From: Candidatus Blackburnbacteria bacterium
GTDB lineage: Bacteria; Patescibacteriota; Microgenomatia; UBA8517; UBA10165
NCBI GenBank assembly: GCA_016183565.1
Contig: JACPEJ010000001.1
Location: 226,577 to 290,576, forward strand
Length of the DNA: 64,000 nucleotides
Direction of reading: 5' to 3'
In this document: positions 40,429-47,430 of the stretch, in pieces
Numbering within the stretch: position 1 is the stretch's first letter
Layout: each line of letters begins with the position of its first letter
The notes under the pieces: generated by a model
Told to the model about the DNA's origin: nothing
Database searches by the model: none
What the model saw: only the letters and a program-made list of their open reading frames with translations
Position numbers and translations under genes: made by a program

Positions 40429-41748
40429 ATGCAACCAATACTCACTCACGCACTTCCATCACCCGAACTAGAACTTCCGCGCACACTGCACGACGATAGG
40501 CATCAACTTGAGGTGGTTGATGTGCCAATAGTTACTACGTCAGCTAGTTTCAGAAGTGATATCAAGAGAAACTTTGGCGAGTCAACTCGCAGTAAAGGGG
40601 ATGACATTGTTTTTTCCAGAGCACATTTCTCAATGGCTGTGGGAGTTTTAGAGCAAGCTGTTGAGGGGGGTTTAAGCTCTTGGCTTGTGGACCCAATTAA
40701 TTATATTTCGATTAAAGATTGGGGAAAGTTGGTGATGATGGTGAAGGTGGGACGTTTAGTTGCCAGATTTCATTTTTTAAAACACGTTAAGGATTTTGTA
40801 GATGAAATTGCTCGTGGGAAGATGCCGTTGACGAGTGCCATAACTCGACCATTGGTTTATGTAACTGGTGCTACCACGAAGCCAGTAGTATCGCTGCATT
40901 ATGAGACAGGAAATATTTTGGCAAGGGAAGGTAAGCAAGTTTTGCAAGTCGTGACGGATCCTTATGTTAGATCTCAATATCTTTTTGAAGCAGAGCGAGA
41001 GAATATAACTTATGCAGTTTTTGACAAAGAAACAAAGAAAGATTTTTTAGCTCAGGCAAAGGAACTTGGAAAACAGGTTGATCCGGCTCGAATTGTGGTT
41101 ACAGGACCACCTGTTGATCCAAGAATAGTAAGAGCCAGAGAGGGAAAGGCTGCTGTCTCACACAAAAGCCGACCCTTAAGGCTTGTTGTGACCACTGGAG
41201 GTTTGGGACAGAACAAAGAAGAAATTTTTCAAGTTCTTGATAGTATTGGACCTCTGGTTAAAGAAGGGAAGGTACAGGTTTTACTTTATGGGAGTACGTT
41301 GTCTGATTTTAAAAATATGTATAGAGAGGTAGCGCGTAAGTTTGATATTCCGGTTGGAGCAACAGATGATCTACAGGCGGCCTTGCGGATTCTATATTAT
41401 CCCGGCATAGTAGATGCGAATCAGTCTTTAATTAGTTATGCGTTTGACTGGGCTGATGGTTTTATTACCAAACCGTCGGGGGATATGGCGTATGACGCAG
41501 CGGCAGCAGGTTGCCTTCTTTTACTACTTGAACCATGGGGGGAGTGGGAGGAAAGTATTGGAAAAATTTTTACTAAACTTAACATTGCCTGCAAGGTTCA
41601 AACTGATGATTTTAGTCAACAACTGGAAGGGCTTCTTCAGAGTGGGTGGGTTGAAACCTCGATTGCAAATGCACTTAACATAGATAGGCTTTTTTTAAAT
41701 GGAGCGAAAAAGATAGTTGACTTACAGCAAAAAATTGCAATACAATAG
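40429..41748 (+). CDS. putative glycosyltransferase (MGDG-synthase/UgtP/MurG-like C-terminal domain)
   Basis: ...GFITKPSGDMAYDAAAAGCLLL... resembles the ITKPGG donor-binding region of GT28-type enzymes. Confidence 0.35.
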   Translation: MQPILTHALPSPELELPRTLHDDRHQLEVVDVPIVTTSASFRSDIKRNFGESTRSKGDDIVFSRAHFSMAVGVLEQAVEGGLSSWLVDPINYISIKDWGKLVMMVKVGRLVARFHFLKHVKDFVDEIARGKMPLTSAITRPLVYVTGATTKPVVSLHYETGNILAREGKQVLQVVTDPYVRSQYLFEAERENITYAVFDKETKKDFLAQAKELGKQVDPARIVVTGPPVDPRIVRAREGKAAVSHKSRPLRLVVTTGGLGQNKEEIFQVLDSIGPLVKEGKVQVLLYGSTLSDFKNMYREVARKFDIPVGATDDLQAALRILYYPGIVDANQSLISYAFDWADGFITKPSGDMAYDAAAAGCLLLLLEPWGEWEESIGKIFTKLNIACKVQTDDFSQQLEGLLQSGWVETSIANALNIDRLFLNGAKKIVDLQQKIAIQ

Positions 41749-42199
41749 TAGGGAGGTGGTATTAAGTTTTGTAATTGTTGCCTTGTGGTTGTTGGGCTTG
41801 ACTGTTTGGGTTTACAGGGCTACTGTTCACTGCTCTCGTTTAACAGGAAGTAGTGACAAGAAGGATCTTAAGACAATTCTTGACAATTTGCTTTTGAGTT
41901 CGACAAAAACTTCAGATCATGTGAAGGATGTCGAACTTAAGATGGCAGAACTTGGCAGGCAGGTACAAAAGCATATTCAAAAGATAGGTGTTGTAAGATT
42001 TAATCCATTTGGGGACACTGGAGGTAACCAGTCTTTTGCAATAGCTTTCTTGGATGGACAAGATTCGGGGGTTGTGGTTTTGAGCTTGCACGGTAGAGAA
42101 GGAACCAGAGTTTATGTTAAAAATGTTAAGGAGGGTGTTTCTTCCTACGAACTTTCTAAGGAAGAAGCGCAAGCGGTTGAGCAGGCAAGGAAGAGATGA
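41717..42199 (+). CDS. hypothetical membrane-anchored protein (DUF4446-like)
   Basis: N-terminal TM helix; VVRFNPFGDTGGNQSFAIAFLD; start uncertain (TTG 41717 or GTG 41756). Confidence 0.4.
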   Translation: MTYSKKLQYNSREVVLSFVIVALWLLGLTVWVYRATVHCSRLTGSSDKKDLKTILDNLLLSSTKTSDHVKDVELKMAELGRQVQKHIQKIGVVRFNPFGDTGGNQSFAIAFLDGQDSGVVVLSLHGREGTRVYVKNVKEGVSSYELSKEEAQAVEQARKR

Positions 42200-42203
42200 A
42201 GGA

Positions 42204-43364
42204 ATGAGTAATTTAAATATAAAATTAAGAGTAATTGGAGGGTTATTAGGAATTTTTCTTTTATCTGTAGGTATCTCCTACGCGGCTTTTTCATATCTTA
42301 GCAAAATGGGGGTTGGTAAGACGGTCTCTCCGCAAGGGATGGGAGGAGCGAGAAATAAAATAGATCTTTCTCTCCCCAAAACCGAGGAGTGTCCTCTTAA
42401 TGGCCAGATGTTTACTAAGGCAGAGCGGGAAATTTGGGAGAAGAGAAGGCCTCTTGGAGTTATGATTGAAAACCACACAGAAGCCCGTCCGCAATCGGGA
42501 TTGTCATCTGCAGATGTTGTATATGAGGCAGTTGCAGAGGGAGCGATTACTCGTTTTCTGGTGGTGTTTTATTGCGGAGCTTCGGCAGAAGAAGTAATGA
42601 TAGGACCTGTCCGATCTGCTAGAACTTACTATTTAGATTGGGTTTCGGAATACGGACAAGCTCCTCTATATGCTCATGTTGGTGGTGCCAATAGATCTGG
42701 TCCTGCCGACGCGTTGGGCCAAATAGAAAAATATGGATGGTACTTATACAACGATCTCAACCAATTCAGCATAGGGCTTGATGCATTCAGGAAAGAGATG
42801 GAGCGTCTACCTGATGTTGCAACGGAACACCAAATGTATGCAACGACCGATAAATTATGGACAGTTGCTGCCGAGCGTGGACTTACTTACAAGGACAAGA
42901 ATGGAGTTGCTTGGAATAAAGGCTTTGTGCAATGGAAATTTGCTGATGGTCAGCCTTCTGCTTCTCCACCAACAACTCGTATAAGCTTTCCTTTTTGGGA
43001 AGGATATATGCAATACGCGGTTTTGTGGACTTACGATCAAAGCACCAACACATATAAAAGAGAGAATGGTGGTGGATCACACAAAGACCTAAACAATGAC
43101 ACCCAGATTTATGCATCAAATGTTGTGGTTATGTTTACTACAATGAAATACCTTAATGATCCAGAGAAGCATTTGCTTTACACAACAACTGGTTCAGGCA
43201 AAGCACTATTTTTCCAGAACGGAAATGTAACAGAAGGTAAATGGTCCAAGAAATCAAGAACTGACAGAACAATTTTTACAGATAAAGCTGGGAAAGAGAT
43301 ATTATTTGTGCGGGGGCCGATTTGGATTGAAGTTTTAGAGACTGGGTCTAAAGTTACTTATTAA
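42204..43364 (+). CDS. DUF3048 (YerB-like) secreted protein
   Basis: PLGVMIENHTEARPQSGLSSADVVYEAVAEGAITRFLVVF resembles the DUF3048 signature. Confidence 0.55.
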   Translation: MSNLNIKLRVIGGLLGIFLLSVGISYAAFSYLSKMGVGKTVSPQGMGGARNKIDLSLPKTEECPLNGQMFTKAEREIWEKRRPLGVMIENHTEARPQSGLSSADVVYEAVAEGAITRFLVVFYCGASAEEVMIGPVRSARTYYLDWVSEYGQAPLYAHVGGANRSGPADALGQIEKYGWYLYNDLNQFSIGLDAFRKEMERLPDVATEHQMYATTDKLWTVAAERGLTYKDKNGVAWNKGFVQWKFADGQPSASPPTTRISFPFWEGYMQYAVLWTYDQSTNTYKRENGGGSHKDLNNDTQIYASNVVVMFTTMKYLNDPEKHLLYTTTGSGKALFFQNGNVTEGKWSKKSRTDRTIFTDKAGKEILFVRGPIWIEVLETGSKVTY

Positions 43365-43421
43365 CCAAACTACTTGCTTTTGTACCTGCCGAAGGGCTGC
43401 CTCAAACTAAAGAATTGAATC

Positions 43422-44006
43422 ATGGCAACATTAAGGGATTTTATAGTCTCTGGGGTTAGGGTCAAACTCCTTAAAGCTTTTTTGGAAGATTCTCGGGAAA
43501 TGTATCATGTGCGTGACTTGGTAAGGCGCATTGGAGAGGAAATAAATGCGGTAAGACGGGAGTTGTCGAGAATGGAGGAAGCGGGGATGGTTAGGAAAGA
43601 GAAGAGGGGCAATAGGCTTTATTATTGGTTTAGAGGGGACTATGTTTTTTTTCCGGAACTAACAAGTTTGGTTGCAAAAACAACCGGACTTGGCTTTGCA
43701 ATCCGTAAGAATAGAGGAAGGATTGGAAAGCTGGATTTTGTTATGTTTTCTGGGGAGTTTGTACGACATGCTTCTCGCAAAACTAGTGATCAAGTAGATG
43801 TGTTTGTTGTTGGTGATGTTGTTTTGCCTGAGTTGGCTTTACTTATTAGGCAAGAGGAAACAAAACGGGAGCAGGAGATTAATTATACTCCAATGACTAG
43901 GGAAGAATTTGAGTTTCGTAAATCTCGTCGAGATCCTTTTGTGTTGGGTGTTCTTATGAATAAACGAGTTATGATAATTGGTGAAGAAGAGGAGTTTGTG
44001 AGTTGA
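43422..44006 (+). CDS. winged-HTH regulator fused to a minimal nucleotidyltransferase-like domain
   Basis: N-terminal wHTH; C-terminal FVMFSGEFVRHASRKTSDQVDVFVVGD resembles the polymerase-beta/MNT G-S...D-x-D motif. Confidence 0.45.
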   Translation: MATLRDFIVSGVRVKLLKAFLEDSREMYHVRDLVRRIGEEINAVRRELSRMEEAGMVRKEKRGNRLYYWFRGDYVFFPELTSLVAKTTGLGFAIRKNRGRIGKLDFVMFSGEFVRHASRKTSDQVDVFVVGDVVLPELALLIRQEETKREQEINYTPMTREEFEFRKSRRDPFVLGVLMNKRVMIIGEEEEFVS

Positions 44007-44209
44007 TACAGAAAGTTTTTAAGACTGGTAATAGTTTGGCTATCACAATTCCTGCGAAGTTTGTTGCTTGTCTTGGAATTAAACGGGGTGATAATGTTCA
44101 GGTAATAGAACAAAAAGATAAAGCGAGGATTGTGTATCACTTTGCTGGTAGTCGCCAATTGCCTTTGGCCCAAGAGTTTTTCAAAAAAATGGGTAAAAGT
44201 CACTCTTGA
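44003..44209 (+). CDS. AbrB/MazE/SpoVT-family small DNA-binding protein (antitoxin-like)
   Basis: KTGNSLAITIPAKFVACLGIKRGDNVQV swapped-hairpin motif; TTG start overlapping the upstream stop (gtgagTTGa). Confidence 0.55.
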   Translation: MIQKVFKTGNSLAITIPAKFVACLGIKRGDNVQVIEQKDKARIVYHFAGSRQLPLAQEFFKKMGKSHS

Positions 44210-44210
44210 A

Positions 44211-45581
44211 ATGGGTTCTTCTGTAAGACGTGTTTTTATAATAGTTATTCTGATTTTGGTGGCTGCTTTTGTAGCACTTCCTGATGAGTTGCCTATTAAT
44301 TTTGGGTATGGGAACTTTAAGGTTAATTATGTCCTCCAAAGACCTCCTGTTAGTTTAAATTATGGTAGTTTTTCTTTCCAGCGTGATTTGGATCTTAAGT
44401 TAGGTCTTGACCTTGCAGGGGGTAGTCATCTTGTTTTTGAGGCGGATGTAACGGGCATTGATGCTAGTGATCAAGATTTGGCGGTAGAGTCGGCAAGAAG
44501 TGCGATCGATCGTAGGATAAATTTATTTGGGGTTTCGGAAAGTACTGTTCAGACTGCGAAAGTTGGAACATCAAGAAGGATTATTGTTGAGTTGCCTGGT
44601 ATTAAAGATGCGCAACAAGCAGTAAGTTTAATTGGTAAAACAGCTCGGTTGGATTTTAGGGAGTTGACTGATACAGTTGAGGCGACACAGGGTGCTGTTT
44701 TTTTGACTCTAGATAATACTAAAACAACAGGATTTACAGGTGCAGATTTTGAGCGAGCTAAACCAGATTTCGATTCTACAACTGGTAAGCCAGTTGTTTC
44801 TTTTGAAATGAAGCAGGATTCAGCAAAGAAGTTTGGTGAGATTACAACAAGGCTACAAGGTAAAAGACTTGCAATTTTTTTGGATGAAACTCCAATCTCT
44901 GCTCCTGTTATTCAAACTCCAATTACGGAGGGGAGGGGTCAAATAACTGGGGAGTTTACGTTGCAAGAAGTGAAGGATTTGTCGAATTTATTGAGTGCTG
45001 GTGCTTTGCCGGTTCCTGTAAAACCTATTGAACAAAGGACTGTTGAGGCAAGTTTAGGTAGAGAATCTATACAAAAAAGTGTAGTTGCTGGGGTTGTTGG
45101 TTTGGGAATGGTTGTTCTTTTTATGGTTCTTAATTATAGAGTACTTGGTTTTCTTGCGAGTGTTGCTCTGTTAATTTATGGCATATTAACTCTTGCGTTA
45201 TATAAACTTATTCCTATTGTTTTAACACTACCTGGTATTGCAGGTTTTATACTTTCTGTTGGCATGGCGGTTGATTCAAATATATTAATTTTTGAGAGAA
45301 TGAAGGAAGAGCTTATGAGTGGTAGGTCATGGCAAAATAGTATGGAATCGGCTTTTGGAAGGGCATGGGATTCTATAAGAGACGCTAATATTGCTACTCT
45401 TTTGACAGCCTTTGTTTTGTTTAATCCGTTGAACTTTAGTTTCTTGCATACCTCTGGTCCTGTACGTGGGTTTGCGTTAACCTTGGCATTGGGGATAGCA
45501 GTAAGTTTGTTCACAGGGGTATTTGTTACAAGGACATTGATGCGGGTTTTTGCAAAGAAAGATATACAGAAAAAAATATGA
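44211..45581 (+). CDS. secD: protein translocase subunit SecD
   Basis: N-terminal TM, periplasmic domain, 5 C-terminal TM helices; followed by secF. Confidence 0.88.
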   Translation: MGSSVRRVFIIVILILVAAFVALPDELPINFGYGNFKVNYVLQRPPVSLNYGSFSFQRDLDLKLGLDLAGGSHLVFEADVTGIDASDQDLAVESARSAIDRRINLFGVSESTVQTAKVGTSRRIIVELPGIKDAQQAVSLIGKTARLDFRELTDTVEATQGAVFLTLDNTKTTGFTGADFERAKPDFDSTTGKPVVSFEMKQDSAKKFGEITTRLQGKRLAIFLDETPISAPVIQTPITEGRGQITGEFTLQEVKDLSNLLSAGALPVPVKPIEQRTVEASLGRESIQKSVVAGVVGLGMVVLFMVLNYRVLGFLASVALLIYGILTLALYKLIPIVLTLPGIAGFILSVGMAVDSNILIFERMKEELMSGRSWQNSMESAFGRAWDSIRDANIATLLTAFVLFNPLNFSFLHTSGPVRGFALTLALGIAVSLFTGVFVTRTLMRVFAKKDIQKKI

Positions 45582-46450
45582 ACTGGATGAAGTTTCGCTG
45601 GTTTTATTTTTTGGTTTCAGGAATTGTGTTGGCTTTTTCTGTATATGCAATAGCTACCTGGGGTTTTCGCCCCTCAATAGATTTTACTGGGGGGAGTGTA
45701 GTGGAATACAGATTTCAGGGTCGTGTTGAAGCATCAAAAGTATCGGAAGATATTGTAGCGCAAGGTTATGAACTAAAGGAAGTTAAGAGTATAAGTGCTA
45801 ATAGTTTAGAACTGAAATTTGTGCCAACCTTTGAGCAAAGGAATGCGGAGGATTTAAGTGCAATTCTTGCTCAATCTTTAAAAGAAAAACCTGAGATTGT
45901 AAGATTTGAGACTGTTGGTCCGGCCTTGTCTACAGAGATTCTTGAAAAAACATATATAGCAATAGCAATTGCGGCAACAGGAATTCTTCTTTGGGTTGCG
46001 TGGCAATTTAAAAGTATTCAGTTCGGGATTTCTGCGATTCTTGCGACGCTACACGATACGATAATTTTGCTTGGTGTGTTTGCAGTACTTGGGCACTACA
46101 AGGGTGTTGAGGTTGATATACTTTTTGTTACAGCAGTTTTAACAACTTTGTCCTTCTCGGTTCACGATACTATTGTTGTCTATGATCGAATCCGAGAGTC
46201 GAAAAGAAGATTTAGTAGTGTTTCTTTTGTAGATCTTTCTAATAAAGCGGTCACAGAGACAATGGGTCGTTCGCTTAACAATTCTTTGACTATTATTTTC
46301 ATGCTTCTGGCGCTTTTTTTGATGGGAGGAGTAACTATAAAATGGTTTGTTGCAGCACTTCTTGTTGGTACAATATCAGGTACTTACTCATCTCCATTTG
46401 TCGCAGTCCCGCTTTTGGTGATGTGGGATTGGATTAGAGGTAGGTTCTAG
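45578..46450 (+). CDS. secF: protein translocase subunit SecF
   Basis: 290 aa, SecF topology; overlaps secD by 4 nt. Confidence 0.88.
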   Translation: MNWMKFRWFYFLVSGIVLAFSVYAIATWGFRPSIDFTGGSVVEYRFQGRVEASKVSEDIVAQGYELKEVKSISANSLELKFVPTFEQRNAEDLSAILAQSLKEKPEIVRFETVGPALSTEILEKTYIAIAIAATGILLWVAWQFKSIQFGISAILATLHDTIILLGVFAVLGHYKGVEVDILFVTAVLTTLSFSVHDTIVVYDRIRESKRRFSSVSFVDLSNKAVTETMGRSLNNSLTIIFMLLALFLMGGVTIKWFVAALLVGTISGTYSSPFVAVPLLVMWDWIRGRF

Positions 46451-46551
46451 TGGAGCTTCATTGGAAATTATTTTACAGTATACAAGCTTTGAATAAGGCT
46501 ACTTGACAAAGGCTCTTGGTTGTAGTAGTGTATATACATTGTATATATTAG

Positions 46552-46866
46552 ATGGCTACCTTTAGTTTGAGGGGTATTGTTGGTTTTGAATGGGATAAAG
46601 GAAACATTTCTCATATAGCAAAGCACAATGTTGCACCAAGAGAGTCTGAAGATGTGTTTTTCGATAAGAATAATGTGTTGGATGAGGATTTGAAACATTC
46701 GGTGGGAGAACAGCGTTTTTTAATCATCGGAAAAACGAAAAGGGGAAGAATTTTATATCAAATATTTACCGTAAGGGGAGGCAAGATTAGAGTTGTCTCG
46801 TCGCGAGATATTAACAAGAAGGAGGTGAGCTTGTATGAAAAAAAAGTTGATAATTCCAAAATTTAA
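46552..46866 (+). CDS. brnT: BrnT-family ribonuclease toxin (DUF497)
   Basis: FEWDKGNISHIAKHNVAPRESEDVF ... RFLIIGKTKRGRILYQIFTVRGGKIRVVSSRDINKKE. Confidence 0.75.
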   Translation: MATFSLRGIVGFEWDKGNISHIAKHNVAPRESEDVFFDKNNVLDEDLKHSVGEQRFLIIGKTKRGRILYQIFTVRGGKIRVVSSRDINKKEVSLYEKKVDNSKI

Positions 46867-47098
46867 GAGTGAGTCGGAAGAATCCAGATTTTGGGCTAAT
46901 CTTGATTTAATGGAATATTTTGAACCTTCTGATTTTAGAAGGGGAGTTGTGTTTCCGCAATTAAAGCGGAGCAAGCGCCTCGTTTCAATTCGCCTTCCTG
47001 ATGAATTAATAGTTAGAGTTAAAGATAAAGCTAGTAAGCTTGAAGTGCCATATCAAAGTCTTATACGTAGGTATATTCAGCAGGGAGTAGCTAGATAA
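46835..47098 (+). CDS. brnA: BrnA-family antitoxin (RHH/CopG-like)
   Basis: SESEESRFWANLDLMEYFE...SIRLPDELIVRVKDKASKLEVPYQSLIRRYI. Confidence 0.7.
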   Translation: MKKKLIIPKFKSESEESRFWANLDLMEYFEPSDFRRGVVFPQLKRSKRLVSIRLPDELIVRVKDKASKLEVPYQSLIRRYIQQGVAR

Positions 47099-47319
47099 AA
47101 GTTCTTTTGTTCAGGGGCAAGTGAGGTTGAAAGGAAACTTGAGCAATAACCCTGCAGTTTAGTTAGTGGTAGGCCCGAGTTCTCAAAACGATCGCAACAC
47201 CTTAAGGGTTAATTTTTAGGTATCATCACCTCCATGGGAATTAGAATGGAGGTGAGTAAAATACCAAAGTATAGAAAGCTGGTTAAGGAGGATAGGATAC
47301 TGATTGCTCAATGTAGAGA

Positions 47320-47430
47320 CAATGGTTTGTTGCAGCACTTCTTGTTGGTACAGTGTCAGGTACTTACTCATCTCCATTTGTCGCAGTCCCGCTTTTGGTG
47401 ATGTGGGAGAAAATTAAGAGGAGGGTTTAG
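47320..47430 (+). pseudogene. duplicated 3'-terminal fragment of secF (~110 nt, 2 mismatches over the first 92 nt)
   Basis: aatggtttgttgcagcacttcttgttggtaca...gtcccgcttttggtgatgtggga also occurs at 46331-46440 as the genuine secF end. Confidence 0.85.

Follow-up and report, generated by a model that had tools for sequence, protein, structure and literature searches.

In the HepT/MntA type VII toxin-antitoxin (TA) system, the antitoxin MntA has a minimal Pol-beta nucleotidyltransferase (NTase) fold and no DNA-binding domain, and it poly-adenylylates HepT by means of a GSX10DXD motif whose residues bind ATP and two Mg2+ ions (PMC7641770). Neutralization by minimal nucleotidyltransferase (MNT) antitoxins requires adenylylation via this motif, and the MntA variants G27S/S28T and D39E/D41E show reduced neutralization of HepT (PMC7641770). 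PDC-M05 is a candidate defense or TA pair that consists of an ArsR-like winged helix-turn-helix (wHTH) with a KNTase-like nucleotidyltransferase (M05A) and of a HEPN protein (M05B) (PMC12988326; bioRxiv 10.1101/2024.09.26.614923). The notion that MNT/HEPN components become domesticated is established (PMC3710099). Here we analyzed a 64,000-nucleotide stretch of a Candidatus Blackburnbacteria genome (contig JACPEJ010000001.1, positions 226,577 to 290,576), hereafter the window, in which an ATG-initiated open reading frame (ORF) of 194 amino acids (aa) on the forward strand (43422-44006), called gene X, encodes a wHTH and MNT-like protein of the PDC-M05A/MntA family. A 68-aa ORF on the same strand (44003-44209), the small gene, encodes a protein of the AbrB/MazE/SpoVT fold. 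A first-pass annotation had seen in this pair an atypical TA or abortive infection (Abi) module with rearranged partner roles. Our analysis leads us to a different view, which we hold to be probable although far from certain: gene X would be an exapted, vertically inherited wHTH-MNT antitoxin homologue, probably non-catalytic, that acts as a lineage-specific regulator with an optional AbrB-type partner, and the locus would hold no working TA/Abi module.

The 194-aa protein and its degenerate NTase motif

The product of gene X matched the PADLOC model PDC-M05A (PDLC04368) over its full length (residues 3-192, E=1.7e-31), with a score of 108 bits compared to 165-191 bits for canonical members, and it could be aligned with the latter from end to end. 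A database search returned 3299 homologues, and an exhaustive HMMER search gave 2788 clusters at 50% identity (E<1e-3); among the 150 matches listed, nearly all full-length family members measured 190-200 aa. The likeness to PDC-M05A comprises the two-domain architecture, a length of about 190-200 aa and a full-length hidden Markov model (HMM) match. Judging from these comparisons, the 194-aa protein is a member of the PDC-M05A family, with an NTase domain of the MntA/PDC-M05A type.

The N-terminal winged helix noticed in the first-pass annotation (residues about 10-70, 43449-43631) was confirmed and has an ArsR-like fold. Pfam and NCBIfam gave sub-threshold matches of the ArsR/PaaX/IclR type to residues 10-70, with 26.4 bits for NF033788 (cutoff 55) and 14.8 bits for Pfam HTH_5 (cutoff 22). 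The recognition helix INAVRRELSRMEE and the wing RGNRLYY are invariant in close orthologues. The protein differs from ArsR/SmtB repressors in that it scores below all curated cutoffs, shows no evidence of a metal site, and has a C-terminal NTase-fold domain instead of their dimerization helices. The C-terminal half had no match in the Pfam/NCBIfam scan. The AlphaFold2 (AF2) model of the protein reached a pLDDT of 95.9, and the C-terminal domain (residues 76-194, 43647-44003), when modeled alone, was predicted to adopt the Pol-beta NTase fold. In an alignment of 80 diverse family members, NTP_transf_2 (27/80) and Polbeta (25/80) were recognized over the region that corresponds to this half, and the window protein retains REINY and DPF, two motifs common to the whole family.

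An NTase-like motif had been proposed for this domain, and it indeed aligns with GSX10DXD within an NTase fold, but it is not intact. Canonical relatives carry an invariant YGS and, ten residues further on, SDxD, whereas the window protein reads, in register, F109-S110-G111-E112 and D123-Q124-V125-D126 (degenerate region F109-D132, 43746-43814). The Gly (G111) and the second Asp (D126) are retained, with E112 in place of the Ser and Q124 in place of the first, metal-binding Asp. Across 81 orthologues, position 112 is occupied by R, K, E, N, G, Q or H and never by Ser, while position 124 is E in 38, D in 22, Q in 13 and another residue (among A, G, S, K and R) in 8. Positions 124 and 152 are non-acidic in many orthologues; D126 and G111 are conserved in 78 and 74 of the 81, respectively. 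Since the motif is substituted and even conservative MntA variants are impaired, the window protein appears unlikely to carry out canonical adenylyl transfer. In a neighbor-joining tree, which was midpoint-rooted, the canonical clade stood apart from two clades of the Candidate Phyla Radiation (CPR) with degenerate motifs, and the direction of motif change was assigned on the basis of the superfamily's ancestral state.

Linkage to HEPN was checked in P0164 and P0222, the two relatives with a canonical motif for which a contig position could be assigned, and in each of them the gene with YGS...SDxD is followed by an overlapping PDC-M05B/HEPN gene. In contrast, no HEPN gene lies next to gene X, the neighbors of which are the genes for DUF3048, the AbrB-like protein and SecD, and no PDC-M05B match was found among the 89 window ORFs of at least 100 aa. 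Canonical PDC-M05A members thus combine an intact motif with a HEPN gene, whereas the window gene combines E112/Q124 with a place in a conserved housekeeping block. The window protein shares the minimal Pol-beta NTase fold with MntA and differs from it by the fused wHTH, the degenerate motif and the lack of HepT. We detected no paralogue of gene X or of the small gene in the window.

The first-pass annotation had also compared the 194-aa protein to AbiEi and AbiEii condensed into one chain. The likeness to the AbiE type IV TA system goes no further than the combination, in general terms, of a wHTH antitoxin and a Pol-beta-superfamily NTase; in AbiE, unlike in the window fusion, the NTase is the toxin and a separate, larger protein. 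The comparison did not hold: neither AbiEii (PF08843) nor the AbiEi C-terminal domain was matched, Pfam gave no AbiEii/AbiEi match at E<=1, and a PADLOC AbiEi match (E=0.013) was restricted to residues 14-66 of the wHTH. A real AbiEii gene (PF08843), accompanied by a small upstream gene, was found on the minus strand of a Roizmanbacteria contig (L093:142-1004), about 3 kb from the X orthologue. Therefore, genuine AbiE modules occur in these genomes, and they look different.

The secDF block and the 68-aa partner

To describe the genomic context, we scanned one genome per GTDB species, which yielded 282 stretches encoding a relative of gene X, and we used the best 80, ranked by similarity to X. 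The order of the block is DUF4446-DUF3048-X-(MazE-like)-SecD-SecF-CCA, the last gene, for a CCA-adding enzyme, being on the opposite strand. In the window, the block starts with the DUF4446 protein gene (41717-42199), followed by the DUF3048 protein gene (42114-43364; Pfam DUF3048 and DUF3048_C), whose true start may lie 3' of the listed one. Downstream of X and the small gene are secD (44211-45581; Pfam SecD_1st, SecDF_P1_head and SecD_SecF_C) and secF (45578-46450), which overlap by 4 nucleotides (45578-45581); all of these genes are on the forward strand. When the window proteins were searched with tblastn in the 80 loci, DUF4446 was present in 66, DUF3048 in 79, X in 80, SecD in 77 and SecF in 76, and the CCA-adding enzyme was found on the opposite strand in 60. 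DUF3048 is the most constant upstream neighbor of gene X (79/80), and secD comes directly after gene X or after the small gene in 77/80 loci. The block is retained around orthologues with 39%, 43% and 36% identity to gene X, and a Dojkabacteria orthologue (31% identity) still has DUF3048 upstream, with secD not adjacent.

The median identity to the window proteins was 60% for X, 54% for SecD, 50% for SecF, 47% for DUF3048 and 60% for the CCA-adding enzyme, in a comparison that the ranking of loci by similarity to X inflates in favor of X. Gene X is conserved about as well as SecD, like a housekeeping protein. No terminator-like site was found from gene X into secD (43422-44777). Many of the contigs that show the gene order typical of Microgenomates (L005, L009, L010, L012, L017 and others) are titled "uncultured Gammaproteobacteria bacterium" (TPA assemblies), and the record of L082 is titled "Bathyarchaeia archaeon". 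These titles are probably taxonomic mislabels, since the gene order is that of Microgenomates.

Both ORFs and their junction were correctly recognized in the first-pass annotation. The stop of gene X (TGA, 44004-44006) and the start of the small gene (TTG, 44003-44005) overlap as TTGA, and the ATG of secD (44211) lies one base after the small-gene stop (44207-44209). A Shine-Dalgarno-like box read from the sequence, GAGGAG (43989-43994), is located 8 nucleotides 5' of the TTG. This start is credible because orthologues share the first residue (M-x-QK...), for which ATG is the usual codon. A single-sequence search with the 68-aa protein gave 8 matches and a profile search at least 811 relatives, and the closest pairs of small genes showed dN/dS values of 0.05-0.24, i.e., purifying selection. 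Neither ORF is a chance ORF, given these relatives and this selection for the 68-aa protein and the 3299 relatives of the 194-aa protein. Proteins 100% identical to both products are present in a public Candidatus Blackburnbacteria metagenome-assembled genome; the longer is named "winged helix-turn-helix transcriptional regulator" at NCBI, and the public name of the shorter is [quoted passage not shown]

The AbrB/MazE-type assignment of the 68-aa protein was upheld by a PF04014 (MazE_antitoxin) score of 34.6 bits, above the gathering score of 24.7. The protein also matched TIGR02609 ("doc_partner," E=1.9e-8), and all NCBIfam antitoxin equivalogs stayed under their cutoffs. Its orthologues measure 59-72 aa and share the pattern QK[VI]xKTGNSLAVTIP...G.K.GD.V...F....QL.LL. 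Both proteins of the pair descend from antitoxin-type families. The 68-aa protein has the same swapped-hairpin AbrB-type domain as the AbrB/MazE/SpoVT antitoxins (PemI/MazE, VapB) and differs from them by its fixed, vertically inherited slot between X and secD and by the lack of an adjacent toxin gene. The earlier remark that no MazF/PemK-like toxin follows and that secD comes next, at 44211, was correct; we found no MazF/PemK, PIN or Doc toxin gene beside the small gene in the window or at the orthologous loci examined.

The small gene was present in 22 of the 80 loci and absent in 58. In loci that lack it, at most a few tens of bases separate the stop of gene X from the start of secD, which leaves no space for it. 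Where present, in Blackburnbacteria, Amesbacteria, Shapirobacteria and a lineage with 39% identity to X, it directly follows gene X in every locus seen except L082, in which an inserted 264-aa gene parts the two (L082:4548-5342). Two reverse-strand genes, one of them for an MFS transporter, part the MazE-like gene from secD in L096 (3211-4748), and there it still lies 2 nucleotides after gene X. The slot it occupies is the one held by the HEPN gene in canonical modules. Residues of the 194-aa protein that differed with the presence of the small gene tracked lineage, and none co-varied with it beyond phylogeny. The 68-aa protein is a genuine, old partner physically tied to gene X, and most lineages lost it or never had it. 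In one Blackburnbacteria-like locus (L009:4582-4827), an 81-aa ORF that ends in ...ILGDEQEFVS, a copy of the X C terminus, fills the gap between X and secD. This ORF points to a scar left by an insertion or duplication at the 3' end of gene X, like the end duplication seen at secF in the window.

The latter lies between secF and the CCA-adding enzyme gene, where a BrnT toxin gene (46552-46866) and a BrnA/CopG-type antitoxin gene (46835-47098) are found. The pair is flanked (window 46340-47424) by near-identical direct repeats of about 97 nucleotides (about 46340-46438 and 47320-47418) that duplicate the 3' end of secF (35 codons, 83% amino acid identity), and related loci lack the pair. It looks like a mobile TA cassette inserted in the end of secF, carrying or regenerating the end of the gene. 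Elsewhere in the window, PADLOC matched one of the 89 ORFs of at least 100 aa to PDC-S13 (E=2.9e-129) and another to PDC-S04 (4.7e-24), and two ORFs gave weak matches to Cas10 models (1.5e-10). As the window is full of ribosomal and housekeeping genes, these ORFs may be housekeeping homologues rather than defense genes.

Sequence elements upstream of gene X

The 57-nucleotide spacer 5' of gene X carries a C-rich element, (T/C)CCTGCC(C/T)C, that we regard as a candidate cis-regulatory site (43385-43403, forward strand; CCTGCC ... CTGCCTC). The window copy is at 43397-43403 and a half copy at 43385-43390. Of 79 loci, 49 have the core CTGCC[CT] within 60 nucleotides upstream of the start of the gene X orthologue, with a cluster at -11 to -20, against a background of 0.024 per 60 nucleotides. 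Upstream of X we counted 61 occurrences, compared to at most one for each of the other mapped genes, and within the window the core does not mark gene starts in general. The element is neither a Shine-Dalgarno sequence nor a palindrome, and some loci carry it twice. Its frequency is higher among loci that lack the MazE-like gene (44/58) than among those that have this gene (5/21).

In loci of the Amesbacteria type, the C-rich element is replaced by a TTGCAT(TTT)-N17-TGGTATCTT box, which resembles a sigma-70 -35 element with an extended -10, about 20-60 nucleotides upstream of the start of the X orthologue (L015, L016, L019-L023, L032, L049, L056, L059 and L076). This arrangement suggests that gene X heads a transcription unit in these loci. 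Around the two genes in the window, a promoter scan gave 11 matches for 15 expected, not above chance, and an inverted-repeat scan gave only short repeats within coding sequence, likewise not above chance.

Candidate functions of gene X and its partner

The explanation that we favor is that a Microgenomates-specific 194-aa protein lost its HEPN toxin partner together with the canonical GSX10DXD chemistry. Its winged helix would contact nucleic acid, as a DNA-binding or possibly an RNA-binding regulator, and its dead or altered NTase domain would serve in dimerization, perhaps in nucleotide sensing. The protein would act on its own unit, X-secD-secF, and perhaps also on DUF4446-DUF3048, with the conserved CCTGCCYC element just 5' of the gene X start codon as a possible site of action. 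The 68-aa protein would be a translationally coupled, dispensable accessory that probably serves as another small DNA-binding subunit or teams up with the 194-aa protein.

Several observations weigh against this explanation. A role as regulator of secDF is suggested by gene order alone, and the operon argument is weakened by the fact that nearly all window genes are co-directional. CCTGCCYC is missing in more distant lineages and in most loci with the MazE-like gene. HEPN-linked relatives likewise conserve the recognition helix (VRREL..LE), which therefore may not read a lineage-specific operator. The conservation of X relative to its neighbors is inflated by the ranking of the best 80 of 282 loci, as stated above. 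Furthermore, the strong conservation of G111 and D126, together with an acidic residue at position 124 in 60 of the 81 orthologues, makes a modified enzymatic or nucleotide-binding function possible for the family. Finally, the HEPN search was confined to the 64-kb window, and a HEPN partner elsewhere in the genome is possible.

The conserved residues speak for an alternative in which the MNT-like domain is an enzyme or a nucleotide-binding switch with altered chemistry and the AbrB-like protein, where present, replaces HEPN as its substrate or partner, the two forming a toxin-free, post-translational pair. The counts at G111 (74/81), D126 (78/81) and position 124, the retained REINY and DPF motifs, and the position of the small gene exactly in the HEPN slot, 2 nucleotides after X even where an insertion parts it from secD, are all consistent with such a pair. 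However, the window protein has Q124 and E112, no orthologue has the Ser of the GS motif, positions 124 and 152 are often non-acidic, and MntA is impaired by conservative substitutions at such positions (PMC7641770). Most orthologues also lack an AbrB-like partner, and no residue of X co-varies with the partner beyond phylogeny, and we regard this alternative as unlikely. A more specific proposal, which we consider distinctly unlikely, is that of a toxin-free, TA-derived switch made of the wHTH-MNT-like and AbrB-like proteins and dedicated to the DUF3048/SecDF envelope-secretion block, in which the NTase-fold domain would have acquired a new ligand or protein substrate and the AbrB-like protein would sit in the former HEPN slot. 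That gene X could be an orphan antitoxin, an anti-addiction or immunity factor against HEPN toxins that come from other sites of the genome or are brought in by phages and plasmids, is suggested by its closest sequence relatives, which are HEPN-linked antitoxins, and our inspection covered 64 kb of the genome, in which no HEPN gene was found. Yet neutralization by MNT antitoxins needs adenylylation via GSX10DXD (PMC7641770), a motif that is degenerate in X. An immunity gene would also not be expected to be so highly conserved or to keep such tight and ancient synteny with DUF3048 and secDF, and we regard this role as very unlikely.

The atypical TA/Abi module of the first-pass annotation, an AbiEi/AbiEii-like fusion with a MazE-type partner, has several points in its favor: both proteins come from antitoxin-type families, the genes overlap with apparent translational coupling, and one PDC-M05 system gave some protection against phage in E. 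coli (bioRxiv 10.1101/2024.09.26.614923). Moreover, the two features on which that annotation had made its proposal depend, an NTase fold and the recurrence of the pair in other genomes, are both present, the pair being found in Blackburnbacteria, Amesbacteria and Shapirobacteria and in deeper lineages. Nevertheless, we consider such a module highly improbable. Neither protein has a toxin fold, the AbrB fold and the wHTH being DNA binders; no AbiEii or AbiEi C-terminal domain was matched, and the NTase motif is degenerate. Gene X is vertically inherited and syntenic in at least 80 species, and the small gene is missing in 58 of the 80 orthologous loci. A position fixed down to 36-43% identity and a SecD-like conservation are unlike mobile, fast-evolving TA or defense genes, and the BrnT/BrnA pair in the same window shows how a mobile TA insertion looks here.

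A regulator derived from an MNT-type antitoxin and kept in a housekeeping block, the explanation that we favor, would be a clean example of an antitoxin scaffold retained after the loss of both toxin and catalytic motif. It would not be a new kind of defense system, and both proteins already carry generic annotations. HMM-based annotation of defense and TA genes (PDC-M05A, "MazE antitoxin") would, however, mislabel two core-like genes across a class of CPR bacteria. In the literature that we searched, we came across no account of this CPR family, of its synteny or upstream motif, or of the function of DUF3048. If the toxin-free switch described above were true, it would document the recruitment of a whole antitoxin scaffold to core physiology in minimal-genome organisms. 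To our knowledge, the regulators and gene-cluster logic of CPR bacteria are almost unknown, and the SecD-like conservation of gene X, its place ahead of secDF and its gene-specific upstream motif provide a testable entry to the regulation of secretion and envelope genes in these organisms.

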